NCBI GenBank assembly: GCA_964497435.1
Contig: CAZCCD010000001.1
Coordinates: forward strand, 29,914-61,913
Direction of reading: 5' to 3'
DNA length: 32,000 nt
From: Candidatus Woesearchaeota archaeon
GTDB lineage: Archaea > Nanobdellota > Nanobdellia > Pacearchaeales > GW2011-AR1
Positions 1,032 through 29,914 of the stretch are shown here, one piece after another. How positions within the stretch are numbered: the stretch's first letter is position 1; each line of letters starts with the position of its first letter. The position numbers and the translations under genes are program-made. The notes under the pieces were generated by a model. It was not told the origin of the DNA and searched no databases. It saw nothing but the letters and a program-made list of their open reading frames with translations.

Positions 1032-1104
1032 TCGAATCAGTCAGAGGCAACGAAAAGATTCGGCGAGGTTGCTGGAGTTGTGAAGAACCCGCTGGAGGTT
1101 CTCA
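1032..1104 (-). repeat. hairpin-repeat element, copy A, abutting the stop codon of the 1017-aa gene
   Basis: Stem-loop agaacc-CGCTGGA-ggttct at 1084-1102 touches the stop codon at 1102-1104. It is preceded by GAGGTTGCTGGAGTTGTGA. A second stem pairs gcaac (1047-1051) with gttgc (1068-1072). The same module recurs at 4698-4735 and 16866-16903. Confidence 0.6.
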
Positions 1105-4155: not shown

Positions 4156-4613
4156 ATGTAAAAATCAAATCTTGATGGTTTATTTTTGTAGATTGTTATT
4201 CCTGTTACTTGTATTAAGTTTTCTGTATTGCTTGAATTAACCATTCCTACATAACTCGCTGGTAGGCCATTTATCTCTAAATTTTCCATGACAAAATAAA
4301 AATTTCTAGTAACTCCTATTATTGTTTTTTCTGCGTTATAATTTGCCTGAAAAAAATCAAGCTTTGATTGATTAACCCTTCCTTCTGTTAATATTCCTGC
4401 ATCTCCCTCACTCAATATCTGTTCTACAGCAACATTTCCCTCGTAAAATAATTCATCAAGATGTTTTTGTGATTGAGAAGAATAATTAATTGCATAAATA
4501 TAGAGAGTTATTATTCCTGCCATGAAGATAACCCCTGCTATTATAATATCAAGCCCCCATCCCTGCCCATTTTTGTCTTTTTTTATGTTACACATTTTTT
4601 TATTTTTATTCAT
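4146..4613 (-). CDS. pilin-like membrane-anchored protein (shortened start)
   Basis: The track ORF 4146..4793 is trimmed to the ATG at 4613-4611: MNKNKKMCNIKKDKNGQGWGLDIIIAGVIFMAGIITLYIY... This is a basic N-terminus, then G|Q, then a hydrophobic helix. The longer version would translate a non-coding tandem repeat and overlap the upstream gene by 62 nt. Confidence 0.55.
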   Translation of the reverse strand: MNKNKKMCNIKKDKNGQGWGLDIIIAGVIFMAGIITLYIYAINYSSQSQKHLDELFYEGNVAVEQILSEGDAGILTEGRVNQSKLDFFQANYNAEKTIIGVTRNFYFVMENLEINGLPASYVGMVNSSNTENLIQVTGITIYKNKPSRFDFYIWE

Positions 4614-4735
4614 GGTTGCTGGATGCATTAAAACTGGTAGAGGTTTCCTATCTCTGGTTGCTGGATGCATTAAAACTGGTAGAGGTTTCCTATCTCTGGT
4701 TGCTGGATGCATAGAAACCCGCTGGAGGTTTCTAT
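4614..4735 (-). repeat. tandem array of the hairpin-repeat element (two identical 42-bp units plus one variant unit), copies B1-B3
   Basis: Units at 4614-4655 and 4656-4697 are identical (ggttgctggatgcattaaaactggtagaggtttcctatctct). The third unit at 4698-4735 keeps ggttgctggatgcat and carries a perfect 9-bp stem, atagaaacc-CGCTGGA-ggtttctat (4711-4735). That stem contains the TAG stop (4732-4734) of the upstream pilin gene. Confidence 0.85.
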
Positions 4736-5145
4736 TGATTAAGGTAAACTGTGTCATTTTCTTTTTTGATTGAGTTTGAACCTTTCTGTACATTACCTAT
4801 AATTTCTGGAACCCTATAAGCCATGCCATGTCTATCTGTGGAAACATATACAAGGCCCGATGAAATTTCTATATTATAATCATTTCCAAGAACTTTTAAA
4901 GGAACTTGGAATATTCTATTATAGCCGTTTGTTGCTCCTGAAGCTAAGCCAAGTTCGCTTTGAACATCTAGTGCAATGTTTTGAAGCAATATTCTTTCTT
5001 TTTCCTTCTCTTTTTCTAATTGATTCTCTTTTATAATTACGAAAAATGTTACAAATGCAAATAAAACAAATCCAAATATTATCACAAATTCAATAGCACT
5101 CTGACCTCGTGAAGATCTTTGATCTGATCTTTTTATTTTAAGCAT
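4732..5145 (-). CDS. type IV pilin-like protein, class III signal peptide (first gene of the - strand operon; candidate major pilin)
   Basis: 137 aa. The N-terminus MLKIKRSDQRSSRG|QSAIEFVIIFGFVLFAFVTFFVII matches the archaeal QxSxEF-type prepilin N-terminus. Confidence 0.75.
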   Translation of the reverse strand: MLKIKRSDQRSSRGQSAIEFVIIFGFVLFAFVTFFVIIKENQLEKEKEKERILLQNIALDVQSELGLASGATNGYNRIFQVPLKVLGNDYNIEISSGLVYVSTDRHGMAYRVPEIIGNVQKGSNSIKKENDTVYLNQ

Positions 5146-5710
5146 TACACACCTCTAATTTTACATATTTACAGCATCCTTTTTATAAATTATTTACTAT
5201 TATGATTAAGTTAAAGTATCTATATAAAATTAAGCTTTCTGTGATACTGTTAAGTTATCAAGACATATCTCAAATTTGTGATTTTCTAAATTGCTGTTCA
5301 CTTTCGTTCACAGATTTAACATTTTAATAAATTCACGACGAGCAAATGCGAGGAGTGCAAATTTTACATATAAATAAAAAGCAATCCTTAAGATTATTTA
5401 AATTAAAAGAAGAATATCATTTTAGGTTGACAGTATAGCCTTCTGTTAAGCCCGTTATATATCATGAAATACTTCTTAGTTTATATATTGACTATTAATT
5501 AATATTAAAGGATAAATTTATTATGATGTGTTTAAACTCCCTGATTTATCATTAAAAAATTTGATATTTAACTGTTAACTCTAACTCATAATAAACATTT
5601 AAATAATGGATGACTAATTATAACCCTAGATTATACTCACTTATCATTAATATCTCTTTTATAAACTAAATTAAAATAAGGGGTTTGTTTTATGTTTTCA
5701 CAAGATTTTC

Positions 5711-5777
5711 GTAGGAGTAGAACACCCGAAGATGCCCTATCAAATCCTTAAGGATCTGAACGGAAACCGCCTCCTAC
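5711..5777 (-). ncRNA. candidate structured small RNA, four-helix (cloverleaf-shaped but not tRNA)
   Basis: Minus-strand fold: GUAGGAG-[GCGG UUU CCGU]-[UCAGAUCC UUAA GGAUUUGA]-UA-[GGGCAUC UUCG GGUGUUC]-UA-CUCCUAC. Five positions that are A-C mismatches on the + strand are G.U pairs on the - strand. It is a relatively G+C-rich island in a very AT-rich 885-bp gap. Confidence 0.45.
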
Positions 5778-5797
5778 AAAAAATACAATAAAATGAA

Positions 5798-5806
5798 TTT
5801 TTTAAA
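5798..5806 (-). promoter_or_regulatory. TATA-box-like element upstream of the candidate ncRNA
   Basis: Minus-sense TTTAAAAAA ends 20 nt upstream of the first base of the closing stem (5777). This is the usual archaeal TATA-to-start geometry. Confidence 0.35.
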
Positions 5807-6030
5807 CTTATCTCTATTCAAGATGAGATTTTTAAAAGATTTATTTAATCTATATATTATACTTTTTATCAAAAACAATACATATGAGATATCTCTCTAA
5901 TTCTATCTCTTACTTTAACAGTTACCCAAGCTTTGTTTAAACTGAATATAACATAAAATTTATCAACATTAAGTTATTTAGTTTTGTGTATTATCAACCT
6001 TATTTTAATATTCGCGAAAGCGACAATTTT

Positions 6031-7890
6031 TTAAAAATTCCAGGTTTCAAGCAGTGTACCTGCAAATTCTTCTCCAGACGAAAGTATTACTATAGGATAA
6101 ATCTCGACCTTTATTATTGGTGCTACTAATCCAGATGTTGTTAAATCAAAATCATATTTAGTTACCTGCAATATTTCAGGGGCTGGTTTGTCAACAACAG
6201 CTGTATTTGATGAAGAATCAAAGAATACAAATCTTAAAAAATTGTAATTGTGTACAGATTGTGTCTTTTGTGTAAATTGATTTGCGATTGTTTGGTAGAT
6301 GTTTGTTAAATCTGTTACATCTCCATAAGGAGAAAAGGAGAAGTTTCCGCCTCCACAATTTGCAATTTCTTGCATAGTTACTTTATCTACGCCAGCACCT
6401 ACACCTATAGCATGGATTGTTAAATTTTGTATACTTGCATTTGCATCGCATGCAGCCTTAATTGCATCATCCCTACCTGTATCAGGAATTCCGTCGTTAT
6501 TTAAATCACCAGTAACACCCTGTAATGCACACCCTGTAACTGAATCTCCATCACTCATAACAATCATTACCCTTTGAGGGTTAGTTGATGGTGTTAGTTT
6601 ACTTGTGGCGTCATTAATTCCACAGCACATACAAGAAGAAGGTGTGTAGGCTTCCCATGAATCAATTTTGGAATTTAAAGTGCCTGAACCAGAATTATCG
6701 ACTAAATTATTTGAAGAAGTCGTGTCTATAGCATTTCTAAAGATTGAAAATCCAACCCTATTATTTGCCCCTGTAAAAATAGAACTAATCAATGCTTTGT
6801 TTGCAGTTTGTGCCGGCCTTATTTTATCTATCATTATTGAGGTTAAGACTGGCTGCGTATTACAGGTAGACTGACAACTGTTTATTGATGCTGTGGAAAC
6901 ACCTCCACACTCTCCAAGTGGCGGTGATGGTTCAGGAAGAGGGTTTGAATGAGGATCATTAATACCATCTATTAAAGTATTTTTGTGATGCCCCTGGCCA
7001 CCAACACTATTATTTACATCAATATACATGCTACTCACACTTACACTGGCAAGAGATGTATCAACACTACCTAATTCAATTTCAGAAAGCCACATACTTT
7101 CTGTATAATTAATATTTGGGTTGCTCAATTTTATCCACCCCATATTTTCCTGCTGCCAAAGTCTAATGCTTGTTGTTGAGACACTAGAAAAAGTGTAACT
7201 TGAATTTGATACATTATCATTAACAATATTGTGTGCGGCAATTGTTTGATAAGAACTTCCATCCCAGTATTGTATGTCAATTTGTTGAGAAACCATATAG
7301 TTTCCTCTGTAATTATTCCATCCCCACCAAATTGTCACATTATCAATATTTTGTGGAGTCGAAAAATCAAGTGTAGCCCAATGAGGTCCTTGATCATTAA
7401 AACCCCAATCACATGTCGTGAATTCTCCAGTGCAACTACCCCACGTGTAAGACATAAAATGTCTTCTCCAGATAGCGTTACCAGCAGAATTTAGTGAGGC
7501 TGTGCAACAAGTTTGATTAACAAAATTACATACAGACATACTTTCAGATAAATCCACAACACTCATTACATCGACTTGAGGACTCTGTCCTTGAATTTCT
7601 ATGCTTCCTTGAGTTATTATTTTCCCTGTTCTTTTTTGAATTGTTATACTCAAATTTAAATTATTGTTTTGATCGACTTCGGCATTAGTTATGTCAATAT
7701 TTTCTGCTAAAAGATATGCCTTTATAGCTGATTTTTCTGATTCTTTTTCTATAAATACTCTTACTAATGTCCAGATTATGGCTATGGCAACAATTGTAAG
7801 CAAGATTAATAATAATGTAGTTATTATTGTTGAAAGTCCTTTTTTGTTTTCTAATAAACAAATGTAATTAACTTTGCCCTCTTTTTTCAT
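6031..7890 (-). CDS. pilin-anchored adhesin paralogue 1: vWA/MIDAS domain interrupted by a discoidin (F5/8 type C)-like domain
   Basis: 619 aa. The N-terminus NKKG|LSTIITTLLLILLTIVAIAIIW is an archaellin/pilin-type N-terminus. MIDAS motif DVMSVVDLSESM. Insert: ...HWATLDFSTPQNIDNVTIWWGWNNYRGNYMVSQQIDIQYWDGSSYQTI...SIRLWQQ...WLSEIEL (discoidin-like pattern). The rest of the vWA domain follows: SSCMCCGIND, VMIVMSDGDS, LTIHAIGVG. There is a DLNNDGIPDTGRDD Ca-loop-like motif. Confidence 0.8.
   Translation of the reverse strand: MKKEGKVNYICLLENKKGLSTIITTLLLILLTIVAIAIIWTLVRVFIEKESEKSAIKAYLLAENIDITNAEVDQNNNLNLSITIQKRTGKIITQGSIEIQGQSPQVDVMSVVDLSESMSVCNFVNQTCCTASLNSAGNAIWRRHFMSYTWGSCTGEFTTCDWGFNDQGPHWATLDFSTPQNIDNVTIWWGWNNYRGNYMVSQQIDIQYWDGSSYQTIAAHNIVNDNVSNSSYTFSSVSTTSIRLWQQENMGWIKLSNPNINYTESMWLSEIELGSVDTSLASVSVSSMYIDVNNSVGGQGHHKNTLIDGINDPHSNPLPEPSPPLGECGGVSTASINSCQSTCNTQPVLTSIMIDKIRPAQTANKALISSIFTGANNRVGFSIFRNAIDTTSSNNLVDNSGSGTLNSKIDSWEAYTPSSCMCCGINDATSKLTPSTNPQRVMIVMSDGDSVTGCALQGVTGDLNNDGIPDTGRDDAIKAACDANASIQNLTIHAIGVGAGVDKVTMQEIANCGGGNFSFSPYGDVTDLTNIYQTIANQFTQKTQSVHNYNFLRFVFFDSSSNTAVVDKPAPEILQVTKYDFDLTTSGLVAPIIKVEIYPIVILSSGEEFAGTLLETWNF
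6089..6246 (-). repeat. 158-bp block 100% identical to 9419-9576 (3' coding end of the adhesin paralogues)
   Basis: Base-by-base comparison by eye. The flanks diverge immediately on both sides. The block encodes the shared C-terminal segment YNFLRFVFFDSSSNTAVVDKPAPEILQVTKYDFDLTTSGLVAPIIKVEIYPIV. Confidence 0.9.
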
Positions 7891-7911
7891 ATATTTATTA
7901 TGAAATGTATA

Positions 7912-7931
7912 TTTAAATATCTTAGGTTAAA
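7912..7931 (-). promoter_or_regulatory. conserved promoter (TATA box) of adhesin paralogue 1
   Basis: tttaaatatcttaggttaaa is identical to 11059-11078. Minus-sense ATATTTAAA lies 22-30 nt upstream of the ATG, which implies a leaderless or near-leaderless transcript. Confidence 0.5.
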
Positions 7932-7970
7932 GAGCATAGGTTTTATATATGTATTTTTCCTAATTTTTTT

Positions 7971-8627
7971 ATGGAAGAGTTTGTGAACAAAAAGAGAAAT
8001 ACTAAAAAAATCCTTCTTATTACTATTAATGCTGTTATTGTAGTTTTGATTATATCTTTTATCTTATTATTTAGGTCAGAAAAACCAAATCCTGTCAAAG
8101 ATGTAGTTCAAAATATAATTGATAGTGTGACTAATAATGAAGACGATGAAATCCTTTTTCCTCCTGAAGAAAAACTTGGGGGAGGTGGTGGAGGTTCTGG
8201 AGGAGGCGGTTCTGGAGGCGGAGGAGCAAGCAGTGGAGGTGGTGGGGGTTCTGGAGACGGAAGTTCAAATTGCTATACACAAGAAATTTCCTACTACATC
8301 TTAAATGTAAATAAACAAGAGATATGCAATTCCTACAATGGAACAATATGCATAGATAAAACAGTCTCATGCTCGGCAGAGATACATAATGAAGATTTCA
8401 GTATTTCAGGAAATTTCCATTTTATGCTATCAATTGTCGCAATAGGAGAAAACAAAGATAATTCAGTAAAAAATTTTGAATCAACCTTTTCTATAGCCCC
8501 ACAAATGTTCGCTGTTTTTGAAGACTCTGTTAATCTTCAAAGTTCTGAAGAAAATGGTCCTGCAAATAAAGAATATAATTGCTTTTACAATTCTGTTGAA
8601 GTTCCTTTAGCTACTGTTTGTACCTAG
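7971..8627 (+). CDS. membrane-anchored secreted protein with (G4S)-like glycine linker and Cys-rich C-terminal domain
   Basis: 218 aa. N-terminal TM segment (ILLITINAVIVVLIISFILLF). Linker GGGGGSGGGGSGGGGASSGGGGGSGDGSS. The C-terminal ~125 aa contains 7 Cys. TTTTATATAT lies 22-31 nt upstream of the ATG. Confidence 0.65.
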   Translation: MEEFVNKKRNTKKILLITINAVIVVLIISFILLFRSEKPNPVKDVVQNIIDSVTNNEDDEILFPPEEKLGGGGGGSGGGGSGGGGASSGGGGGSGDGSSNCYTQEISYYILNVNKQEICNSYNGTICIDKTVSCSAEIHNEDFSISGNFHFMLSIVAIGENKDNSVKNFESTFSIAPQMFAVFEDSVNLQSSEENGPANKEYNCFYNSVEVPLATVCT

Positions 8628-8901
8628 ATGACACAAACAGGTTTAGATAATTTAGTTCGCTTTAACGCGAAAATTAATTTAATTATAATATTAATAATAA
8701 GATAATAAAGTTTAAATGTTGCATGATTAATTTATTCATTAAGTTAATTTACATCTTAAAATAATTTAGTTTACTCTTGATTTGTATATAATTATAAATT
8801 AATAATTAAAGTTTATCATAACTCATGAACTTACCTCTCACTAATATAAATATTAGCTTTAAAAAATAAATTAAATCATTCAAATATTGCAACTAAAAAT
8901 A

Positions 8902-9321
8902 TTAACTCGCCTGGCTTATTAAAACATCACTGCTTCTTGCCTCAATTACTATCCTTCTTATTCCTTCTCCTGGAGTTAGACTTCCGCTTAGAGGAACCTT
9001 GCTGTCAAAAGCCCTTTTATTAATTTGTCCTCCACTTACACTAGTTGTTATGACTACTGCATTTTGAATTATTGTTATGTTTTCTACACCATCAGGAAGA
9101 TATAATCTTATAGTTGTCTTGCTTGGCTCTCCTGCAAAGAAAACAGATTCTGAAGAACCGATAAGCTGGTTTGCAAAATTTTCAACCTGATTTAATCTTA
9201 TCCTATCTTTTATGTCATTTGAAAAAATAAAAGCAAAGGCAAGTATAGACATTATTGCAAATGTTAAGAAACCTATGACAATCATATACTCTGTTCCTAT
9301 TTGCGCTTTTTTATTTTTCAT
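8902..9321 (-). CDS. pilin-like protein, class III signal peptide
   Basis: 139 aa. N-terminus MKNKKA|QIGTEYMIVIGFLTFAIMSILAFAFIF. It lies 30 nt downstream of adhesin paralogue 2 on the same strand. Confidence 0.7.
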   Translation of the reverse strand: MKNKKAQIGTEYMIVIGFLTFAIMSILAFAFIFSNDIKDRIRLNQVENFANQLIGSSESVFFAGEPSKTTIRLYLPDGVENITIIQNAVVITTSVSGGQINKRAFDSKVPLSGSLTPGEGIRRIVIEARSSDVLISQAS

Positions 9322-9351
9322 ATCTTAAAATTTACTTTATTTGAATTTATA

Positions 9352-11037
9352 TTATTCTTCTTCAAATTCCCAGGTTTCAAGCAACGGTCCTGCAACTTCT
9401 CTTCCTGATGAGAGTATCACTATAGGATAAATCTCGACCTTTATTATTGGTGCTACTAATCCAGATGTTGTTAAATCAAAATCATATTTAGTTACCTGCA
9501 ATATTTCAGGGGCTGGTTTGTCAACAACAGCTGTATTTGATGAAGAATCAAAGAATACAAATCTTAAAAAATTGTATTTTTGTATTGTTTTTGATTGCTG
9601 TATTGATTGGCCTGCTATTGTTGTGTAGATGTTTGTTAAATTATCTATGCTTCCATTAGATGCGTAATAAGTTCCATTTCCGCAGTTTGCGATGGCTTGT
9701 AGAGTCGCAGCATCAGCAGTAGGTTCAATACCAACACTATGGATTGTTAAATTCTGTATACTTGCATTACAAGCTGCATTAATGGCCTGTTGCGCAGGAG
9801 TTCCAGCCCCACCACAACCAAAATTTGCCAACCCATCACTCATAACAATCATTACTTTTTGTTTGTTTAACACTGAGTTATTTCCAAATTCAGCCGAGGC
9901 ATTGTTTATCCCACAACAAATGCAAGTTGCTCCCCAAGCCTCCCAACTATCTATTTTTGAGACTAGAATTCCAGAATTTGTAACTAAACCACTTGAATTA
10001 GAAGAATCTAAAGAACCCCTATATGCTGATAAACCAACTTTATTATTACTCCCAGTGAAAATTTCACTAACTAAGGCTTTATTTGCATTTATAAGAGGGT
10101 TAATTCTATCAATAAGATTCCCTCCACAGATAGGTTCACAATTGTTTAATGATGTTTTAGGTACTTCAGTACAATCGTAAGGAGGAGTAGTTGTTGCGTT
10201 GTTTAACTGGATTTCACTAATCCACATTATGTTTGGATAACTGGGAGGTCCCATTCCTGATTGTTGTACAAACCTTAAAGCTTGTGTTGAAAATTGTGGA
10301 AGAATGATTGTAGAATTTGATATGTTTTGAGCTCCGCCGCTGTTGAAAGTGACTAATGGCTGGAATACATATCCTGCATCTGCGTATTGAATCTCAACCT
10401 GTTGTGAAGTCATATATCTTGAAGTAGTTGCGTTCCAACCCCACCAAATTGTTATATTACTTACAGTTACTTGACCTACTATAAAGTCCATCGTAATCCT
10501 ATGGGGGAAAGGGCCTGTACTAGAACTTGCCCAGGAATTTGTCGTATTAATTATTCCGTCGACTAAATCACTTTCACTCCCAATGCTTGTGCTCCTAACA
10601 GTAACTTGTGCAAAAGGATCCATGCCTTCATTATACAAAAAAGCGCAACAATCTAAAGTTATATCTTCACAAACAGCCATGCTTCCGCTTAAATCCACAA
10701 CACTCATTACATCGACTTGAGGACTCTGGCCTTGTATCTCTATACTTCCTTCAGTTATTATTTTCCCTGTTTTCTTTTGGAGTGTTATGCTTAGACTTAG
10801 ATTATTGCTTTGGTTTATTTCGTCATCTATCACTTCAATGTTTTCACCTATTAAAGACGCTTTTATCGCCGATATTTCAGAATCCCTTTCTAAAATCAAT
10901 CTGACAATAATCCATATAATTGCAATTAAGACTATAGCAATTAAAATAATTAAAAGTGTTGTTATTATTGTTGAAAGGCCTTTTTTCTTTCTACAAATTG
11001 GAGAAACAACTAAACTAACACCTCTTTCTTTTTCCAT
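9352..11037 (-). CDS. pilin-anchored adhesin paralogue 2: vWA/MIDAS domain interrupted by a discoidin (F5/8 type C)-like domain
   Basis: 561 aa. N-terminus RKKKG|LSTIITTLLIILIAIVLIAIIW. MIDAS motif DVMSVVDLSGSM. Insert: HRITMDFIVGQVTVSNITIWWGWNATTSRYMTSQQVEIQY...ALRFVQQ...WISEIQL. Then ATCICCGINN, VMIVMSDGLAN, LTIHSVGIE. The C-terminus is identical to paralogue 1. Confidence 0.8.
   Translation of the reverse strand: MEKERGVSLVVSPICRKKKGLSTIITTLLIILIAIVLIAIIWIIVRLILERDSEISAIKASLIGENIEVIDDEINQSNNLSLSITLQKKTGKIITEGSIEIQGQSPQVDVMSVVDLSGSMAVCEDITLDCCAFLYNEGMDPFAQVTVRSTSIGSESDLVDGIINTTNSWASSSTGPFPHRITMDFIVGQVTVSNITIWWGWNATTSRYMTSQQVEIQYADAGYVFQPLVTFNSGGAQNISNSTIILPQFSTQALRFVQQSGMGPPSYPNIMWISEIQLNNATTTPPYDCTEVPKTSLNNCEPICGGNLIDRINPLINANKALVSEIFTGSNNKVGLSAYRGSLDSSNSSGLVTNSGILVSKIDSWEAWGATCICCGINNASAEFGNNSVLNKQKVMIVMSDGLANFGCGGAGTPAQQAINAACNASIQNLTIHSVGIEPTADAATLQAIANCGNGTYYASNGSIDNLTNIYTTIAGQSIQQSKTIQKYNFLRFVFFDSSSNTAVVDKPAPEILQVTKYDFDLTTSGLVAPIIKVEIYPIVILSSGREVAGPLLETWEFEEE
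9419..9576 (-). repeat. 158-bp block 100% identical to 6089-6246
   Basis: See 6089-6246. A second identical run of 39 bp (10690-10728 = 7549-7587) covers the MIDAS-encoding segment. Confidence 0.9.
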
Positions 11038-11058
11038 TCATTTATAATGAAAATTGTG

Positions 11059-11078
11059 TTTAAATATCTTAGGTTAAA
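11059..11078 (-). promoter_or_regulatory. conserved promoter (TATA box) of adhesin paralogue 2
   Basis: Identical 20-mer to 7912-7931, at the same 22-nt distance from the ATG. Confidence 0.5.
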
Positions 11079-11431
11079 TTAACTTTATTTTGTAGCTTAA
11101 CATAAATACACTATCTTAAATTATATATTAACTGACTCAGAGACTCTGTCAAGAATCTCCGCTATAAAATAGCTTATAAATGAATTTATTAAGAGATAAG
11201 TTTATCTTAAGTCAAAACTTTGTTGACATTTATCATTGATGTAAATATTAATATGTATATTAAAGTGAATTAAATGCTAAGTTAATTTGTTTGTTTTACA
11301 GTTACTCTTATATTATATTTATTAATTCTTACAAAACTTACTTAACTAATTTTATTCTTTGAATTTTCAGTAAGGTTTATATAACTAATACTCTATTTAG
11401 AAATAAGAGAGGTATATAAAAATTTTTAGAC

Positions 11432-11926
11432 ATGGCAAAAAAAGTAGGTATAATTTTAATGGCTATTTTTGTAGTCTCTTTTTTAGGAATAAATTTGTAT
11501 AACTTTTTTTGGGATAGAGATTCAACCTCCCCAACAGGTTCTCTTATAACTGATTTACCTCTCGGCCTTAATATGAGTGTTCTTGCATTTGTTCTTCAAT
11601 GGGTCATACTTTTGGTTGTTGTTATATTTGCATACACGAGATTTTTGAAGCATAGAAAAGAAGAAGACGCAAAGATTGCAGGGCTAGTCCTTCCTAAACT
11701 CACATCAAAATCTCAAACTTATATGGATGTTTTTTACAATCTTCTTAAAGAAAAGAAAAGTTTAAGCATTAGGTCTGTATCCATACTTTTTAATATTAAG
11801 AAAGACAAAGCAATGGAATGGGCAAAAATATTAGAAGACCATGATCTTGTAATAATCGAATATCCTGCTTTCAGTGACCCAGAAGTTAAAATAAAAGAAG
11901 GGAAAATGGAACTTGACATGATTTAA
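11432..11926 (+). CDS. small membrane protein with possible C-terminal winged-helix-like domain; first gene of the filament machinery operon
   Basis: 164 aa. Two predicted TM helices (IILMAIFVVSFLGINLY; VLAFVLQWVILLVVVIFAY). The soluble C-terminal ~70 aa (SIRSVSILFNIKKDKAMEWAKILEDHDLVIIEY) is helix-turn-helix-like by pattern only. Confidence 0.5.
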   Translation: MAKKVGIILMAIFVVSFLGINLYNFFWDRDSTSPTGSLITDLPLGLNMSVLAFVLQWVILLVVVIFAYTRFLKHRKEEDAKIAGLVLPKLTSKSQTYMDVFYNLLKEKKSLSIRSVSILFNIKKDKAMEWAKILEDHDLVIIEYPAFSDPEVKIKEGKMELDMI

Positions 11927-11992
11927 ATTAAAAAGAAAATGATAAAAAATAAAAAACAAATAAATATTAAACTGTTAAATAAAAACTGAAAA

Positions 11993-13966
11993 ATGCTTTT
12001 GAAAAAAAAGAGTGATTATGTTAGAGATTGGGTAAAGAGGGCTATTGAAAAAGGATATCATTTTAAAGATTTACGAAGAGTCCTAACTAAAAGCGGATTT
12101 AACCACAGACAGATTTTGGCTATTCTTTCAATTTATGAAAAAGTTAAGAAAGATCCACATTTTATAATCACTCAAAAAAACATCCCTCTTACAATAAAAA
12201 AAATGCCTTCTTTAGTTTTAAAGCCTTTAGTTACTAAAGAAGATTTACAAAAACAATTCTTGCCTCCTCCTCCACCAAAAAAAACCATTTTTGAAAAAGA
12301 AGAAAGACAGGAACAAAAGAAAGATGATAAAAATATTTTTGAAAATGAACAAAAAAATAAGATATTTCCTTCTCTAAAATTAAGTGAAAAACCTCCTTCG
12401 TCCAGGCTTGACCGAAGTGAAGAAAAAAGCTTAGAACCCATTAAATTAGCTCCTGTATTAATCAAGCCTAAGCCTAAAGGAAAAGTCATAGATGAATATG
12501 AATTAGAAATTGACAAGGCAAAGGTCACGATATCTATTGAAAAAGTAACAGAAGGCCTAATCTATAATGTTTATTTTCCAGAAATAGATATTGCTACAAA
12601 AGCTTTGCTTGAAGAAATAAGAAAAGAATTAATAGCTGTCACAACGCTTGCGATAGGAGAGATAGTTGATCAGAAATCTGTCCAGAATGTAAAAGAAAGA
12701 TTCATGAGAGAGGCTAATACTTTATTGAGAGATAAAGTTCCAGGAATATCAAAAGATACAGAGGATTTTCTTGTAGGAATTTTAATGCAAGAAATGCTTG
12801 GACTCGGCAAGATAGAATTTTTGATTAATGACCCGAATTTGGAGGAAATTGTAATTGTTAGCAGTATTGAAGTAAGAGTTTACCATAAAAAATACGGTTG
12901 GCTTCTTACTAATATAACTCTAAGGTCAGAAGATGAAGTTACCAACTATGCAAATATAATAGCAAGAAGAGTTGGAAGACAAATAAGCATTTTAAACCCT
13001 TTACTTGATGCGCATGTAGTTACTGGAGACAGGGCTAACGCGGTTCTCTATCCTGTAGCTACTAAAGGAAATACAATAACAATTAGAAAATTCTCAAGAG
13101 ACCCCTGGACAATAATAGATCTTATTAACAATAATACAATGAGTAAGGAAATTGCTTCAATATTATGGCTTGCAATGGAGTATGAGATGAATGTCATATT
13201 TTCAGGAGGCACGGCATCTGGAAAAACAGTCTGTTTGAATGCATGTATGCCTTTTATCCCCCCAAATCATAGAGTCATAAGTATGGAAGATACAAGAGAG
13301 TTAATGCTTCCAACATTTCTTTACTGGTGCCCTTTAGTGACAAGGACATCAAATGTCGAGGGAAAAGGAGAGGTTTCTATGCTTGACCTCCTTGTAAATT
13401 CACTTAGAATGAGGCCTGATAGAATAATACTTGGAGAGATAAGAAGACAGAGAGAGGCAGAAGTTTTATTTGAGGCTATGCATACAGGACACTCTGTTTA
13501 TTCTACAGTTCATGCAGACACAGCCAACGAAACAATCAGAAGGCTGACAAATCCTCCAATAAACATCCCCCCTTCAATGCTTTATAGCGTCAATCTTAAT
13601 CTTGTCATGTTTAGAGACAGGAAAAAAGGAGTAAGAAGAGCTTTCCAGCTTGCAGAATTTATTCCTGGCAAAGAATCATTGACTGCTAATTTGCTTTATA
13701 GATGGATTCCTGACAGAGATCAGTTTGTAGCTCATAACAGGAGTCTTTCTTTTTTTGAAACACTAAGCAGAAATACTGGAATGGACGAGAAAGAAATAAA
13801 TTCTGAGATAAACAACAAAAAAGATATTTTTGATTGGCTCATAAAAAACAAAATAAGAGACCTCGAGTCTTTTGGAAAATTAACAAATCTTTATTATACT
13901 GACAGAGAAAGAATGTATTCAATTATAAAAAATAATAAAGTTTCAGAGATTTTAGAGAAAAAATAA
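11993..13966 (+). CDS. type IV filament/secretion ATPase, TadA/FlaI/VirB11 (T2SSE) family, with long Lys/Pro-rich N-terminal extension
   Basis: 657 aa. Walker A FSGGTASGKT, Walker B-like RPDRIILGEIR, His-box TGHSVYSTVHA. The first ~190 aa are low-complexity (PPPPPKK, KPKPKGK). Confidence 0.85.
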   Translation: MLLKKKSDYVRDWVKRAIEKGYHFKDLRRVLTKSGFNHRQILAILSIYEKVKKDPHFIITQKNIPLTIKKMPSLVLKPLVTKEDLQKQFLPPPPPKKTIFEKEERQEQKKDDKNIFENEQKNKIFPSLKLSEKPPSSRLDRSEEKSLEPIKLAPVLIKPKPKGKVIDEYELEIDKAKVTISIEKVTEGLIYNVYFPEIDIATKALLEEIRKELIAVTTLAIGEIVDQKSVQNVKERFMREANTLLRDKVPGISKDTEDFLVGILMQEMLGLGKIEFLINDPNLEEIVIVSSIEVRVYHKKYGWLLTNITLRSEDEVTNYANIIARRVGRQISILNPLLDAHVVTGDRANAVLYPVATKGNTITIRKFSRDPWTIIDLINNNTMSKEIASILWLAMEYEMNVIFSGGTASGKTVCLNACMPFIPPNHRVISMEDTRELMLPTFLYWCPLVTRTSNVEGKGEVSMLDLLVNSLRMRPDRIILGEIRRQREAEVLFEAMHTGHSVYSTVHADTANETIRRLTNPPINIPPSMLYSVNLNLVMFRDRKKGVRRAFQLAEFIPGKESLTANLLYRWIPDRDQFVAHNRSLSFFETLSRNTGMDEKEINSEINNKKDIFDWLIKNKIRDLESFGKLTNLYYTDRERMYSIIKNNKVSEILEKK

Positions 13967-14854
13967 GTGTTCAAAATGAAATTTAGAATTCCCTTCACTT
14001 TTTCTGATATAGAGATTCTTAAGAGAAAGAGCAAGCCTTTTATAAAATTCACCAAACCAAAAAAATCTAGACTCGATGATTATCTTTTAAGCTCTGGAGA
14101 AAATATTTACAGGAGGCAATATTTAGCCATATGTTATAGGTCTTTTTTAGTTAATATACTCGTTTTTTCTGTTTTGTTCACCTCTATACTTGGAGTTTTT
14201 AGGGCAAGTCTTTTTTATTTTTATGGATTAGGATCAGCCATAATGATTTCTGGATTAATATTTTTAAATCAGCTTAATTATCCAAGAATCTTCTCCTTGA
14301 ATAAAGAAAGAAATATAGAAAGCAACCTTATTTCGGTTCTTCAAGATATGATTGTTCAGTTAAATTCAGGAATACCGATGTTTAAAATAATAGTGAATAT
14401 TTCTGAATCTAAATATGGAGAGGTTAGCAACGAATTCAGAAAAATTACAAAAGAAATAAATTCAGGTATTTCTCAGATAGAAGCAATAGAAAAAGCAGGA
14501 AAAATTAATACTTCGACTTATTTTAAAAGAGTGCTGTGGCAGATTAGTAATGGAATGAGATCAGGCGCTGATATGACTAATATTATAGAAGAAGGTATAA
14601 GAAATTTAACTGACGAGCAAGAAATTCAAATTCAAAACTATGGTGGTAAACTTAATCCATTAATAATGTTTTACATGTTGATGGCAGTTATATTGCCTTC
14701 TTTAGGTATAACCTTCCTTATAATTGTGTCTTCTTTAATGAACCTCCCTAGTATTTTGACGCAGTTGGTTTTCTTCGGAATTTTTGGGGTTGTAATATTT
14801 ATGCAGATTATGTTTCTTGGCTTAATTAAATCAAGGAGGCCTAGCCTACTATGA
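13967..14854 (+). CDS. TadB/TadC-like (T2SSF/FlaJ-family) platform membrane protein, half 1
   Basis: 295 aa. It starts directly after the ATPase stop (GTG at 13967; alternative ATG at 13976). It has TM helices at both ends flanking a soluble helical domain. The family call rests on size, topology and position, which are typical of single-domain TadB/TadC proteins. Confidence 0.65.
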   Translation: MFKMKFRIPFTFSDIEILKRKSKPFIKFTKPKKSRLDDYLLSSGENIYRRQYLAICYRSFLVNILVFSVLFTSILGVFRASLFYFYGLGSAIMISGLIFLNQLNYPRIFSLNKERNIESNLISVLQDMIVQLNSGIPMFKIIVNISESKYGEVSNEFRKITKEINSGISQIEAIEKAGKINTSTYFKRVLWQISNGMRSGADMTNIIEEGIRNLTDEQEIQIQNYGGKLNPLIMFYMLMAVILPSLGITFLIIVSSLMNLPSILTQLVFFGIFGVVIFMQIMFLGLIKSRRPSLL

Positions 14855-15813
14855 ACACACTTAATTTTTATCCTGAAAAAATGAGGAAGCAATACATAAA
14901 AAATATTAGGAATGCTGGCATAAAACATACGCCTGAAAAATATCATAATTTTGTTTTTTGGCTAAGTGTTATAATCACCTTAGTCGTTTCTCCTTTTTTT
15001 TATCTTTTCAATGTTCAGATTTATTTTTCAATACTGGTATTTCTCTTTTTTATAATATTTTTTTACATTCAAACAAGCCTTAAAGCTATGAATAGAATAA
15101 AAAAAATGGAAAATGTTTTCCCAGACGTTATTTCTTTAATGGCTAGCAATCTGAGATCAGGCATAACAATAGACAAGGCTTTTTTACTCGCTGCAAGGCC
15201 CGAATTTTACCCTCTCGATCAGGAAATTCTGAAGACTGGGAGAGATATTACAACAGGACAGGATATTGTTTTTGCCTTAAAATCTATGAGTGATAGGGTT
15301 GACTCAGAGAAAATAGAGAAAGTTATCATGCTTATAATTTCAGGATTAAGAGCAGGAGGAAATATTTCTGATTTGCTTGAGCAAACCGCCAATAATATGA
15401 AGAAAAAAGAGCTTCTTGAAAAAAAATCAAGGTCAACCATACTCATGTATGTAATTTTCATATTTTTTGCCGTGGCGCTTGGAGCACCTGTTCTTTTTGG
15501 ATTAAGCTCTGTCCTTGTAGAAATCATAATAGAGCTTACTTCAAGACTTCCTGAAGTAGGAACAATACCAACTGACCTGCCATTCACTTTTAACGAAGTC
15601 TCAATCTCCTTAAATTTTGTAATTTACTTTTCAATAATTTTTATGGTAATATCAAGCTTTATTTCTTCGATGGTTGTGGGACTCGTAAGAAAAGGGGATT
15701 CAAAATCCGGGTTAAAATACTTTTTGCCCATAGTTTCAATTAGCCTTGTCATTTATTTTATAGTTAGGAAAATCTTGGCAGGCATTTTGCTTGATCTTAT
15801 CTCAAATGTTTAG
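14851..15813 (+). CDS. TadB/TadC-like (T2SSF/FlaJ-family) platform membrane protein, half 2
   Basis: 320 aa. Its ATG overlaps the previous stop (ATGA). The topology matches the preceding gene (N-terminal TM pair, soluble helical domain, C-terminal TM cluster). Confidence 0.65.
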   Translation: MNTLNFYPEKMRKQYIKNIRNAGIKHTPEKYHNFVFWLSVIITLVVSPFFYLFNVQIYFSILVFLFFIIFFYIQTSLKAMNRIKKMENVFPDVISLMASNLRSGITIDKAFLLAARPEFYPLDQEILKTGRDITTGQDIVFALKSMSDRVDSEKIEKVIMLIISGLRAGGNISDLLEQTANNMKKKELLEKKSRSTILMYVIFIFFAVALGAPVLFGLSSVLVEIIIELTSRLPEVGTIPTDLPFTFNEVSISLNFVIYFSIIFMVISSFISSMVVGLVRKGDSKSGLKYFLPIVSISLVIYFIVRKILAGILLDLISNV

Positions 15814-15847
15814 AAATATTTAAAAGAGAGATTAAATTTAATTTACT

Positions 15848-16543
15848 ATGGCAGAAAAAAGAGTCGCATCTGGAATTCCTGGATTTGACAGACTAATTGG
15901 AGGTGGTTTTAATGCCAACTCAATTAACATAATTTCAGGAGGAAGTGGAAGCGGAAAAACAATTTTCTCATTACAGTTTTTACTTGAGGGTTTAAAAAAA
16001 GGAGAAAAAGTTCTTTATGTTACATTTGAAGAGAAAAAAGAAGATGTTTACGACAATGTTAAAAAATTTGGCTGGAATTTAGAAAAGGCGGAGGCAACAG
16101 GAAAATTTATCTTTCTTGAGTACTCTCCAGAGAAAGTTAAGATGATGTTGGACGAAGGAGGAGGAGCAATAGAATCAACTGTCTTAAAAAATCAGATTTC
16201 TAGGCTTGTTATAGACAGTGTCACAAGTTTTACCTTACTTTTTGATGATGAGCAATCTAGAAGACAGGCAGTTCTTGGCCTGGTTGATATTATAAGAAAG
16301 TGGAATTGTACAACCTTACTTACTGTGCAACATGATCCTCTTGAAAAGAGCAGTGAAGGCCTATCTTTTATAGAATTCGAAGTTGATGGAATAATTCTTC
16401 TTTATTATCCTAGCACAGGAGGAAGGAGAAGAAGATATCTTGAAGTCTTGAAGATGAGAGGCACAGAACATTCTAAAGACATGCATGTTTTTAAAATTGA
16501 CAGGGGAATTAAAGTCGGTCCTGTTACTTCAATTAGGAGATGA
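15848..16543 (+). CDS. KaiC-like/RecA-superfamily ATPase (FlaH-like accessory ATPase)
   Basis: 231 aa. SGIPGFDRLIGGG, then Walker A GGSGSGKT and Walker B RLVIDS. It is the last gene of the machinery operon. Confidence 0.8.
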   Translation: MAEKRVASGIPGFDRLIGGGFNANSINIISGGSGSGKTIFSLQFLLEGLKKGEKVLYVTFEEKKEDVYDNVKKFGWNLEKAEATGKFIFLEYSPEKVKMMLDEGGGAIESTVLKNQISRLVIDSVTSFTLLFDDEQSRRQAVLGLVDIIRKWNCTTLLTVQHDPLEKSSEGLSFIEFEVDGIILLYYPSTGGRRRRYLEVLKMRGTEHSKDMHVFKIDRGIKVGPVTSIRR

Positions 16544-16706
16544 ATCACATATTAGATTTTTATTTAGTTCACTTAACACGAAATGAGACTCATAATAGAA
16601 TTTATTCATTATATTAATCTATAGCTAATCTATGAGCTTAAAGCGAGTCTATTTATGTTTGGTTATTTGATTTAATATACTTTAATTTAAATATCCAATT
16701 CACAAT

Positions 16707-16713
16707 AAAAAAA
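16707..16713 (-). terminator. oligo-T terminator of tRNA-Gly
   Basis: Seven consecutive T on the - strand directly follow discriminator base A73 (16714). Confidence 0.5.
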
Positions 16714-17000
16714 TGCGCGGACCGGGAGTTGAACCCGGCTCACCTCGTGTTTGCTTTTTGTTGTTAATTTATTAATTGGAGCTTTGATTCCTTACATTGT
16801 CCTTCTCTATAAAAGGAGGGGTTGTGCGAGCAATTTCATGAGACAAATCGCTCGGAACTCACAACGAGTGAGGTTGCGAGTTAGGAAGAACCGTAGGTTC
16901 TCTATCAGCCTTGAGCACTATCTTAAGGGAGATGGTGTGAGGAAGAACCGTAGGTTCTTCTCATTGGCAACGAGATATTCTACCGATAAACTACCCGCGC
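16714..17000 (-). tRNA. tRNA-Gly(GCC) interrupted by a ~215-nt intervening sequence at a non-canonical site after the anticodon arm (approx. 16744-16958)
   Basis: 5' part on the - strand (17000-16959): GCGCGGG-TA-GTTT-ATCGGTA-GAAT-A-TCTCG-TTGCCAA-TGAGA. 3' part (16743-16714): GTGAG-CCGGG-TTCAACT-CCCGG-TCCGCGC-A. All four stems pair and the anticodon loop is intact. The junction is placed only to within a few nt. Confidence 0.7.
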
Positions 17001-17023
17001 ATAAAAAAACTAGAATGAATCAT

Positions 17024-17033
17024 TATTTAAAGA
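17024..17033 (-). promoter_or_regulatory. TATA-box-like element upstream of tRNA-Gly
   Basis: Minus-sense CTTTAAATAA lies 24-33 nt upstream of G1 (17000). Confidence 0.4.
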
Positions 17034-17061
17034 TTGTTAAATTAAAAATAAGAGGTGAAAA

Positions 17062-17922
17062 ATGTTAAATCTTATTATTCCTGTTGTAGCTGCTTTTTTT
17101 GCAGGCATTGCAACAACGCTTGAAAAATTTGTTTTAAGAGTGAGGAAAATTGACTTTAGATTTTACCAGGTTTTGTCTTTTCTAGCAATCAGCCTTGTAA
17201 TGTTGCCATTTATTCTTTTTTTCTTTAAAATGGATTTTCAGGCTTTAGAAATTAAAAATATAATTATTTTTTTGTTAGTTGTTATTTTTTCAATATTGGC
17301 TAACTTCTTTGTCTTTTATTCTATGAAATGGGAGAAAATCACTAATTTAGAACCAGCAAAGCTTTTAGAACCACTCCTCACAATTATCTTAGCAATTATT
17401 TTCAGTTTTATTTTTGGTCAGGCTCTTTATGAAAGAAGCACAAGAGTTGTTATACCTGCATTGATTGCTGGCTCTGCCTTGATTTTTTCTCATTTAAAAA
17501 AACATCATCTTGAATTTAATAGATATTTTTTGGCTATGATTCTGGGGAGTTTCTTCTTTGCCCTAGAGTTAGTAATAACAAGGTTAATTCTTGATTATTA
17601 CTCTCCACTAAGTTTCTATTTTTTAAGGAGTTCAATGATTTTTCTTTTTAGTCTTATTATCTTTAGGCCTAAATTTAAAAAATTAGGAAAAAAAATAACA
17701 TTTGAAATTTTTCTAGCTGGTGCAATTTGGGTTGGATACAGAGTTCTCCTTTATTATGGTTATTTGAATTTAGGAGTCATATATACTACTTTATTAGTTC
17801 TGCTTGGGCCTGTATTCATCTACTTGTTTGCCTGGAAATTTTTGAAGGAAAAATTAGAATTCAGAAATGTTATAGCAGCAATAATTATAATTGCATGTAT
17901 TCTTTATGTTATTATTTCATAA
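17062..17922 (+). CDS. EamA/DMT-superfamily transporter
   Basis: 286 aa, about 10 hydrophobic helices in two similar halves. A strong SD (AAGAGGTGA) lies 5 nt upstream of the ATG. Confidence 0.6.
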   Translation: MLNLIIPVVAAFFAGIATTLEKFVLRVRKIDFRFYQVLSFLAISLVMLPFILFFFKMDFQALEIKNIIIFLLVVIFSILANFFVFYSMKWEKITNLEPAKLLEPLLTIILAIIFSFIFGQALYERSTRVVIPALIAGSALIFSHLKKHHLEFNRYFLAMILGSFFFALELVITRLILDYYSPLSFYFLRSSMIFLFSLIIFRPKFKKLGKKITFEIFLAGAIWVGYRVLLYYGYLNLGVIYTTLLVLLGPVFIYLFAWKFLKEKLEFRNVIAAIIIIACILYVIIS

Positions 17923-29769: not shown

Positions 29770-29914
29770 CTCCTCATAGCTCAATGGCTTAGAGCGCCTG
29801 GCTGTAGTTAACTGTAATGCTAAGATAAATGTTTCAGAAGATATTAAATAAAGCTCGATAAATAAAAGGTTCAACAGAACCCGGGATATCCCAGTTCGAT
29901 TCTGGGTGGGGAGA
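29770..29914 (+). tRNA. tRNA-Tyr(GTA) with 72-nt canonical (37/38) intron, 29808-29879
   Basis: CTCCTCA-TA-GCTC-AATGGCTTA-GAGC-G-CCTGG-CTGTAG|intron|C-CCGGG-ATAT-CCCAG-TTCGATT-CTGGG-TGGGGAG-A. The C1-G72 pair and A73 are the archaeal/eukaryal tRNA-Tyr identity set. Loop CTGT pairs with intron ACAG, flanked by 3-nt bulges AGT and AAC, giving a BHB core. Confidence 0.85.

Follow-up and report, generated by a model that had tools for sequence, protein, structure and literature searches.

Introduction

The introns of archaeal tRNA genes are removed by proteins, the endonuclease EndA cutting the precursor and the ligase RtcB joining the exons. In the canonical arrangement, the intron lies one base 3' of the anticodon (position 37/38), the anticodon stem serves as outer helix h, and loop bases 32-35 enter a central helix H between two 3-nt bulges, excision of the intron then restoring a standard cloverleaf. 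This bulge-helix-bulge (BHB) motif has been defined by a 4-bp helix, which includes the first two anticodon bases and is flanked by 3-nt bulges, relaxed forms (hBH or HBh') being accepted as well (PMC4090602). We report here on a 32,000-nt stretch of DNA from a Candidatus Woesearchaeota archaeon (contig CAZCCD010000001.1, hereafter the window), in which a tRNA-Gly(GCC) gene has these features of position and core but differs from canonical cases in two respects: its intron extends over 216 nt, where 'less than 100 nt' is usually given (PMC4033280), and the place of the second outer helix, h', is taken by a local hairpin that starts at intron nt 2. This hairpin, termed HP1, belongs to a module that was also found at other loci.

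Other described systems resemble this locus in part. In Thermoproteales, intron transposition has been described (Fujishima et al., 2010, summarized in PMC4090602 and PMC4033280), with similar intron sequences in tRNAs of different identity, as here in Gly and Asp and, in diverged form, in Ala and Leu. The present case differs in that it concerns DPANN archaea, in that a 45-nt 5' module rather than the whole intron is common, and in that this module also occurs outside introns (in tRNA flanks, in an rRNA spacer and at boundaries of open reading frames, ORFs) and in both orientations. The Haloferax tRNA-Trp intron, in which a guide RNA has been described (PMC4090602), and other introns hosting C/D box small RNAs (sRNAs) are likewise long, with a conserved structured RNA that splicing could release, and the module studied here is also fused to tRNA ends; by contrast, it has no terminal C (RUGAUGA)/D (CUGA) pair, no K-turn and no Rfam match, and no complementarity of the window HP1 copy to its host tRNA was found. 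A model for the Caldiarchaeum tRNA-Thr gene invokes tRNA fragments left by integrating elements (PMC3293823). Three of our loci (L047, L059 and L070) indeed have a duplicated 5' tRNA fragment that HP1 separates from the complete gene downstream, but the intervening DNA is 80-95 nt long, comes with no recombinase gene and holds a stretch antisense to the duplicated fragment. Finally, bacterial repetitive extragenic palindromes (REP) and interspersed mosaic elements (BIME), or repeats resembling miniature inverted-repeat transposable elements (MITEs), are also short, imperfect, bulged hairpins at housekeeping gene boundaries in either orientation, unlike which HP1 has an archaeal host, no terminal inverted repeats, no transposase in sight and a strong linkage to tRNA genes and splice sites. 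Neither the Thermoproteales transposition nor the fragments of integrating elements match HP1 fully, and the mechanism by which archaeal tRNA introns are gained or moved has been called unknown (PMC4090602).

The tRNA-Gly(GCC) Gene and Its Splicing Motif

We read this locus, with a probability of roughly 0.85, as a functional tRNA-Gly(GCC) gene from a DPANN archaeon of the Woesearchaeota/Pacearchaeota type, with a 216-nt protein-spliced intron at 37/38 that was lengthened by copies of dispersed hairpins. The precursor indeed contains a BHB core at this position: the anticodon stem UCUCG/CGAGG is followed by a 3-nt bulge, a 4-bp helix UUGC/GCAA and a second 3-nt bulge, UUGC being loop bases 32-35 and its GCAA partner lying 3 nt upstream of the CGAGG strand. 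The predicted splice sites fall between 16965 and 16964 (5') and between 16749 and 16748 (3'). The helix h, the 3-nt bulge and H are already present in the unconstrained minimum-energy fold, and forcing the fold to the cloverleaf arms and the core adds no more than 3.6 kcal/mol; ensemble probabilities reached 0.91 for h and 0.67 for H, the bulges being unpaired with probabilities of 0.95 and 0.74. The 287-nt precursor folds at -92 kcal/mol, versus -66 +/- 5 for shuffled sequences (z = -5.1). Its 5' part reads, on the minus strand from 17000, GCGCGGG UA GUUU AUCGGUA GAAU A UCUCG UUGCCA, and removal of the intron yields a 71-nt tRNA-Gly(GCC) with a standard cloverleaf, a discriminator A73 and no encoded CCA.

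Comparison with relatives supports the same junction. The KaiC-like protein encoded 170 nt from the tRNA has its best relatives, at no more than 74% identity, in metagenome-assembled genomes labelled as Nanoarchaeota, Woesearchaeota and Pacearchaeota, and in twelve relatives (designated, like all other loci, by L numbers) a tRNA-Gly(GCC) adjoins the KaiC-like gene. This tRNA gene has no intron in L005, L012, L013 and L090, whereas introns of 159 (L083), 156 (L087), 102 (L007), 73 (L010), 63 (L086), 56 (L008) and 41 nt (L085) were found at the same site, the 216 nt of the window being the longest among the eight orthologous introns (41-216 nt). All eight share the junction, with positions 27-31 followed by UUGC CA↓N on the 5' side, and (G/A)CAA NN↓A followed by positions 39-43 on the 3' side (arrows mark the splice sites). 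The central helix and both splice-site bulges are accordingly present in 8/8 intron-bearing orthologues, with a single C-A mismatch in L087, which has ACAA in place of GCAA; an A-rich run precedes GCAA/ACAA in seven of them. Conversely, the five bases after UUGCCAA are unable to pair with the 5' strand of the anticodon stem in 6/8 orthologues, while the 3' exon always can, and a UGAGA:UCUCG-type pairing exists only in the window and L083. Near one of these orthologues, about 500 nt from the tRNA-Gly with the 156-nt intron, lies a reverse transcriptase gene (RVT_1, L087:11433-12086, minus strand).

In the alignment of 11 spliced sequences, 99.6% of the cloverleaf cells are paired, versus 32-52% in slid controls, and compensatory changes affect eight pairs, including anticodon-stem pairs 28-42 and 29-41. 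The exons of the window and of L083 are identical at 64/71 positions (90%), and the intron-bearing allele is the same in three assemblies from different sequencing runs. Since the spliced cloverleaves carry compensatory changes, the gene looks functional rather than dead, and since seven relatives have introns at the same site, the interrupted state is old and maintained. Taken together, the comparative and junction evidence thus places the intron at the canonical position and the exons under tRNA-type constraint.

The outer part of the motif is relaxed. The helix h is formed by the anticodon stem, but the intron ends pair over at most 1 bp in the window and do not close h', the place of which is occupied by the local hairpin UGAG.../...CUCA from intron nt 2; in L087, a 2-bp closing h' is present. 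Because h' corresponds to a local hairpin and not to an intron-closing helix, the motif is best described as a relaxed hBH or three-way-junction form. Endonucleases of broad specificity cleave motifs of this relaxed kind; the enzymes of DPANN archaea, the EndA types of which have been reviewed (PMC5829648), carry a loop tied to more disrupted tRNA genes (PMC4090602, PMC5829648).

Several points weigh against our interpretation. With a local hairpin on its 3' side, the 5' bulge is not a true bulge, the motif being modeled as relaxed hBH plus hairpin, and we assume that the endonuclease of this lineage cleaves such a motif. Predicted P(h) and P(H) are low in some orthologues (L083, L010 and L085), and no endonuclease or ligase gene was found in the 32-kb window. 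A second, intronless tRNA-Gly(GCC) may exist outside the 32 kb searched. Finally, archaeal tRNA introns usually stay below 100 nt (PMC4033280), a length exceeded here more than twofold.

From a mechanistic point of view, the precursor would extend its anticodon stem UCUCG/CGAGG by a 4-bp helix, in which loop bases 32-35 (UUGC) pair with a GCAA close to the intron 3' end and which is flanked by the bulges CA↓A and AC↓A that would hold the splice sites. HP1 would replace the outer helix h' right after the 5' bulge, the other 190 nt forming an insertion opposite this bulge. The splicing endonuclease would then cut both bulges, after 16965 and after 16749, and an RtcB-type ligase would join the exons and probably circularize the intron, with a circle junction ...GCAAAC↓AUGAGAAG... 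The intron probably grew by accumulating copies of dispersed hairpins: it holds one and a half HP1 modules, together with hairpins specific to the lineage and an apparently degenerate M2, the second module. Such a mechanism is of a known kind; the novelty lies in the size of the intron and in the dispersed hairpin module.

The gene is easily overlooked. Default ARAGORN and Rfam at its gathering threshold returned no RNA gene in the window, while ARAGORN with introns allowed made two tRNA calls at its default threshold, one of them tRNA-Gly(GCC) at complement 16713-17001 with a 216-nt intron between ...UGCCA and ACGAG... The ARAGORN check suggested in a preliminary description of this DNA, made by a model from the sequence alone, finds the gene when introns are allowed, the default run missing it. 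Lowering the ARAGORN threshold (-ps80) gave 59 calls, mostly spurious, which were set aside, and Rfam at E<=10 on 16600-17100 gave, besides noise, a sub-threshold tRNA match built on the false anticodon arm drawn in that description. Other claims of the latter were correct: the two tRNA-Gly(GCC) pieces about 215 nt apart are found on the minus strand (17000-16714), in a transcribed-looking gene with an unusually long intron, and a TATA-like box (TTTAAATA, at -31 to -24) and seven T (16713-16707) frame it. This box would act as a promoter element, and the T-run is likely an archaeal terminator.

Table 1. Position of the tRNA-Gly(GCC) gene, of its parts and of related modules (window coordinates unless a locus is named).
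Feature	Position	Strand	Basis or remark
Whole tRNA-Gly(GCC) gene	16714..17000	-	ARAGORN with introns, spliced cloverleaf, covariation in 11 orthologues
Putative TATA-like box TTTAAATA	17024..17031	-	-31 to -24 from tRNA position 1; read from sequence
Exon 1, tRNA positions 1-37, 36 nt, 3' end ...UCUCG UUGC CA	16965..17000	-	
5' half of core	16964..16975	-	UCUCG 16975-16971, UUGC 16970-16967, 3-nt bulge C36 A37↓A 16966-16964
Intron, 216 nt, canonical 37/38	16749..16964	-	Junction common to 8 orthologues
HP1 copy 1, 11-bp hairpin, one bulged C, UAC loop (UGAGAAGAACC UAC GGUUCUUCCUCA)	16938..16963	-	Model R1, covariation, fold
HP1 tail CACCAUCUCCCUU, conserved, single-stranded, C-rich	16925..16937	-	Invariant alignment columns
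HP1 copy 2 (AGAGAACC UAC GGUUCUUCCU), no tail, CAAGGCUGAUAG in front	16883..16903	-	19.6 bits
Intron hairpin 3 (AACUCGCAAC / GUUGUGAGUU, 10 bp)	16856..16882	-	Minimum-energy fold; place of CUCAC-UCGUU-GUGAG in the preliminary description
Intron hairpin 4, CGAGCGAUUU GUCUCAUG AAAUUGCUCG, 10 bp	16827..16854	-	Fold
Intron hairpin 5, UCCUUUU AUAG AGAAGGA	16800..16817	-	Fold
A-rich linker, mostly unstructured, into GCAA strand of H	16755..16799	-	Fold
3' half of core	16743..16754	-	GCAA 16754-16751, 3-nt bulge AC↓A38 16750-16748, CGAGG 16747-16743
Exon 2, positions 38-73, 35 nt: A CGAGG UGAG CCGGG UUCAACU CCCGG UCCGCGC A	16714..16748	-	
7-T run right after discriminator	16707..16713	-	Read from sequence
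M2 copy	L007:8380-8415		
M2 copy	L082:1665-1700		
M2 copy	L061:1470-1590		
M2 copy	L008:10380-10425	-	
M2 copy	L008:~4800-4840	-	
M2 copy, apparently degenerate	16827-16854	-	

Inside the 216-nt Intron

The first HP1 copy begins at intron nt 2, and its foot UGAG/CUCA consequently occupies the place of h'. The HP1 covariance model (R1) gives 72 bits over 16922-16968, and the tail which follows the hairpin resembles an anti-Shine-Dalgarno sequence. The hairpin core, GAAGAACC-UAC-GGUUCUUC, lies at 16942-16960, and a second copy with 2 mismatches is found 57 nt downstream, at 16885-16903; there are no further copies in the window, the chance expectation being zero. The preliminary description was thus right about an 8-bp hairpin at the start of the insert and its second copy, although its term 'hairpin repeat' holds for the intron and not for the rest of the window. 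It was also right about further stems, namely the 10-bp stem CGAGCGAUUU/AAAUUGCUCG (16854-16827) and one around CUCAC...GUGAG.

Copies 1 and 2 together form a dimer, HP1-tail-...CAAG(G/C)CUGAUA-HP1, which aligns with a tandem located upstream, and antisense, of the tRNA-Gly gene of L010; the pair is not a duplication private to the window. In L010, this tandem consists of two HP1-like units directly upstream of tRNA-Gly(GCC) (6897-7010, plus strand), the 73-nt intron of that tRNA having no HP1 itself, and no TATA-like box lies within about 45 nt of the L010 tRNA-Gly, nor of the tRNA-Glu of L045.

The ~190 nt beyond HP1 consist of a string of hairpins and the A-rich linker, opposite the 5' bulge. 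Hairpin 4 looks like a degenerate copy of M2, and the L083 intron has, in the corresponding position, a C/U-rich hairpin comparable to hairpin 5. In a comparison of the window with L083, the KaiC-like proteins of which are 74% identical, intron nt 1-40 agree at 38/40 positions (95%), while the remainder aligns no better than shuffled sequences. Since nt 1-40 are kept and the rest is not, the HP1 module is either under selection or homogenized by exchange with other copies. The functional or mobile RNA which the preliminary description had envisaged in the insert finds support here, as the module is conserved to the degree of an exon in distant relatives and recurs at many other loci.

HP1 as a Dispersed Module

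Copies of HP1 were sought by exact match to the 18-nt core common to both window copies, which retrieved 56 metagenome stretches. About 35 of these 56 matches were set aside, being either isolated chance matches or located in an unrelated protein-coding context with a conserved EPTVLP translation, in a protein which we take to be DNA gyrase A. Sixteen stretches, representing 13 distinct loci from at least eight metagenome projects, share more than the 18-nt core: they are 90-100% identical to intron nt 1-46, in unrelated flanks. The common module has 47 nt, its 11-bp stem with one bulged C and a loop UAC being followed by the tail NACCAUCUCCCUU, and a covariance model of this length gives 53-72 bits at the 13 loci and 55 bits in the L083 intron. 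The two lowest stem pairs covary (UGAG/CUCA, UAAG/CUUA, CAAG/CUUG, AAAG/CUUU). No Rfam family matches HP1, no match was found in viral, phage and plasmid collections, and neither a transposase nor an integrase was found beside any copy. Two aspects limit this survey: an exact 18-mer search biases the set toward near-identical members, and the taxonomy of most metagenome loci was deduced from archaeal rRNA/tRNA features only. HP1 is probably a new, apparently undescribed, small dispersed repeat family of related DPANN genomes.

The copies are strongly associated with tRNA genes. HP1 stands at intron nt 2 of a tRNA-Asp(GUC) intron (L082, L063 and L067, where H = CUGU/GCAG), and diverged copies are found at the same offset in tRNA-Ala (L050) and tRNA-Leu (L074) introns. 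It also lies 1-3 bases after the discriminator of tRNA-Leu and tRNA-Ala (L053, L074, L050), and abuts a tRNA 5' end on the opposite strand in L045 and L010. At L047:1377-1470, L059:3660-3760 (minus strand) and L070:58-170 (minus strand), it lies between a complete tRNA and an upstream duplicate of positions ~-3/-5 to +14, the direct repeats having 14-19 nt and the insertion point being the same in two different tRNAs. The element at these three loci holds a stretch antisense to tRNA positions 3/6-11, which would therefore produce a 3-nt bulge at U12 C13↓A14 followed by a hairpin, as at the 5' splice site of the intron. We considered a true intron at 13/14 in these cases and rejected it, there being no 3' bulge at the needed distance; the upstream piece is therefore read as a leftover fragment.

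Outside tRNA genes, a ~55-nt HP1 unit, made of the hairpin and a second hairpin formed from the tail, is inserted in antisense in a 23S rRNA leader (L077:3400-3470), at the site ...GGGAGCUGAGAxAU / CUCAAUGAAGCGA and with a flanking duplication ATATT(A/C)AAT, while the same leader is empty in L050:920-950. Other copies stand 0-20 nt from where ORFs of housekeeping genes start or stop (LigT-like, S3Ae, phosphoglycerate mutase, HerA-like, Sua5 and nucleoside deoxyribosyltransferase). Compared with known classes, HP1 and its tail behave as shared (transposed) tRNA intron sequences, being present in Gly (window and L083) and Asp introns and diverged in Ala and Leu, and as a dispersed repeat family, given the 13 loci at 53-72 bits and the filled (L077) versus empty (L050) site. 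They do not behave as a MITE, having no terminal inverted repeats and flanking repeats in about five loci only, from ~6 to 30 nt long.

A second module, M2, accompanies HP1 in L007, L082, L061 and L008, usually downstream of it. It has a 7-8-bp stem which covaries (GCGAUUU, GCGACUUU, GCGGCAU, AACUUCC...), a conserved loop ..AAYUGCCUCYGAUG, and no Rfam family.

Several single loci deserve mention. At L042:7090-7175 (minus strand), a direct repeat of 23-30 nt stands on both sides of HP1 and encodes the last nine codons of a HerA-like ATPase gene (TAIKIEKRI*) located on the other strand, the repeat copies differing at two positions, both synonymous. At L054:4558-4623 (minus strand), it lies 18 nt upstream of an ORF for a LigT-like 2',5'-RNA ligase/phosphoesterase, and the tail UCUCCC can pair with GGGAGA 9 nt ahead of the AUG, so this copy could form a hairpin sequestering the ribosome-binding site; more generally, pairing with GGAGGUG is possible for the HP1 tail CAUCUCC. 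A second copy of the last 11-12 nt of a tRNA lies 100-190 nt downstream in L082:1770-1990, L063 (minus strand, ~1120-950) and L047:1585-1760 (with 26 nt of flank). The inserts between the repeated ends differ in L082 and L063, two population variants, and part of the L047 insert is more or less antisense to the 3' end of the tRNA; these repeated ends look like further insertion scars. Finally, L050:12-90 (plus strand), upstream of the 16S 3' end in a DPANN rRNA operon fragment, gave a weak Rfam match to group II intron D1-D4 (37 bits, threshold 35).

Discussion

The position of the intron depends on which bases are taken as the 3' strand of the anticodon stem. The preliminary description had placed the insertion at 43/44, after a complete anticodon arm, having drawn no convincing BHB motif by eye, and had noted that the joined pieces give a normal 72-nt tRNA. 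The latter point is correct as far as it goes, joining ...UUGCCAAUGAGA to GUGAGCCGGG... indeed producing a 72-nt cloverleaf which ARAGORN accepts. However, this cloverleaf arises because intron nt 2-6 (UGAGA), the foot of HP1, happen to pair with UCUCG; that pairing is confined to the window and L083, and the five bases after UUGCCAA are unpairable with the stem in L087, L007, L010, L086, L008 and L085. The anticodon stem covaries with the 3' exon strand instead, and no BHB can be drawn at the junction ...CCAAUGAGA↓GUGAGCC..., whereas ARAGORN, the complete core in the minimum-energy fold and the orthologue junctions all point to 37/38, and removal at 43/44 is very improbable. A gene killed by insertion of a repeat element, with another gene doing the decoding, was the other possibility raised in that description. 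HP1 does act as an inserted repeat elsewhere, as witnessed by the direct repeats in L042, L047, L059 and L070 and by the filled and empty sites of L077 and L050, and another tRNA-Gly(GCC) could lie beyond the 32 kb searched. The exons are nonetheless intact, share 90% of their bases with the exons of the nearest relative and show compensatory changes among the 11 orthologues, the splice-site core is intact and conserved, and a promoter-like box and a T-run are present. Moreover, the seven relatives with introns of 41-159 nt, the identity of the allele in three assemblies and the 72-nt intron of a tRNA-Tyr in the same window all speak against inactivation, and we consider a dead gene improbable. 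Self-splicing group I introns interrupt the anticodon loop of bacterial tRNA genes, and such an intron would fit the length (~200-250 nt) and the anticodon-loop position here, and nothing else: Rfam gave no group I match at a cutoff as loose as E<=10, the last intron base is C and not G, a 7-nt anticodon loop is not restored by any junction that has a U before the 5' site, and orthologous introns measuring 41-73 nt could by no means accommodate a group I core, which makes this origin hardly conceivable. We thus retain a protein-spliced intron at 37/38 in a working gene.

What HP1 does within and outside this intron is a distinct question, the two answers considered here both being compatible with that reading. 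The intron could be kept as a precursor of a small RNA, HP1 and its C-rich tail (with M2) being released, probably as a circle through tRNA splicing, or by RNase Z/P when flanking a tRNA, and acting in trans, for example by pairing of CAUCUCC/CCUCC with ribosome-binding sites. C/D box sRNAs in tRNA introns and the tRNA-sRNA dicistrons of Nanoarchaeum are precedents. In favor of such a role, conservation of the module matches that of exons while the rest of the intron is randomized, most copies are co-oriented with a tRNA and placed directly at its processing site, G-U pairs in HP1 and M2 variants fit the sense strand only, the M2 stem covaries around a conserved loop ..UGCCUCYGAUG, and the L054 tail can pair ahead of the next ORF. 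Set against this are the copies antisense to the host transcript (L077, L045, L010), the lack of C or D boxes and of an Rfam family, and a similarity to the 16S 3' end not above that of shuffles, and we hold this role to be plausible but unlikely. HP1 may alternatively be a small mobile or REP-like non-coding DNA element that survives in the few 'safe' sites of a compact genome (introns, spacers and gene ends), for which we see a real chance, somewhat short of even; the window intron would then owe its length to trapped copies. Near-identical 40-nt cores in unrelated flanks across at least eight metagenome projects, the ~55-nt unit inserted in a 23S leader that is conserved apart from it, the direct repeats (14-30 nt) around the copies in L042, L047, L059 and L070, both orientations, the proximity to housekeeping ORF starts and stops, and the same dimer lying inside the window intron but upstream and antisense of tRNA-Gly in L010 would all be expected of such an element. 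It fits less well with the absence of terminal inverted repeats, with repeat lengths too variable for a classical transposase, or with the lack of a transposase or integrase next to any copy and of matches among viruses, phages and plasmids; moreover, the constant start at intron nt 2 in four tRNAs suggests that RNA structure is what is selected or targeted. Combining these aspects, we tentatively propose, while placing the odds against it, that HP1 and M2 form an undescribed family of small structured elements specific to Woese-/Pacearchaeota-type DPANN archaea, spreading among tRNA introns and ends, rRNA spacers and gene boundaries, and that HP1 may supply a ready-made outer helix by a 3-nt bulge, creating half or all of an endonuclease site beside a short complementary stretch.

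Other candidates were tried and rejected. A C/D box or H/ACA guide RNA was discarded, as there are no boxes, pocket or K-turn and no Rfam snoRNA family; the only CUGA lies at intron nt 56-59, with no C box within one mismatch. Hammerhead-like CUGAUAG/CUGAUGA sequences by HP1 have no GAAA and no stem III. A tRNA-like minihelix ending in CCA (hairpin + N + ACCA) would need a spacing that differs by one from the observed one, and the CCA varies (L050, L059). The score as a mimic of 16S helix 45 and the 3' end was reached by 153/500 shuffles, the 7-nt tail still being pairable with GGAGGUG. Lastly, a protein-coding intron or homing endonuclease was rejected, the sense frame having 13 codons only and the antisense 105-amino acid ORF no Pfam family.

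The splicing mechanism is of the textbook kind, and the tRNA gene alone would be a curiosity of length. HP1, however, unites in one element an exon-like conservation, the same 5' splice-site offset in four tRNAs, duplicated tRNA fragments with the same bulge-plus-hairpin geometry, and filled and empty sites; the combination of these features thus makes intron gain and expansion directly testable in this lineage. If the proposed element family is real, HP1 would be a vehicle for the gain and growth of introns in archaeal tRNA genes, and tRNA processing might also release it as a (circular) small RNA, the C-rich loops of which resemble anti-Shine-Dalgarno sequences. In addition, default ARAGORN and Rfam overlook the two tRNA genes present in the window, which helps to explain 'missing' DPANN tRNAs (PMC5829648).

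Other Features of the Window

The second intron-bearing tRNA of the window is a tRNA-Tyr(GUA), at 29770-29914 (plus strand), with a C1-G72 pair. Its 72-nt intron (29808-29879) also lies at 37/38, with H = CUGU/ACAG and bulges AG↓U and AA↓C, and has no HP1; the default ARAGORN and Rfam runs miss this gene too. A TTG-start ORF of 105 amino acids (16751-17068, plus strand) runs antisense over the whole intron and the 5' exon of tRNA-Gly(GCC); no Pfam family matches it, and it almost certainly does not represent a gene. The neighboring genes are archaeal (thermosome, T2SSE, two T2SSF and the KaiC-like ATPase). Ahead of the tRNA, positions 1102-16543 of the window are occupied by a large archaeal type IV pilus-like locus, with VWA-domain proteins, a protein with an archaeal pilin N-terminus, a T2SSE ATPase, two T2SSF membrane proteins and the KaiC-like ATPase, the gene order of which is kept in relatives.

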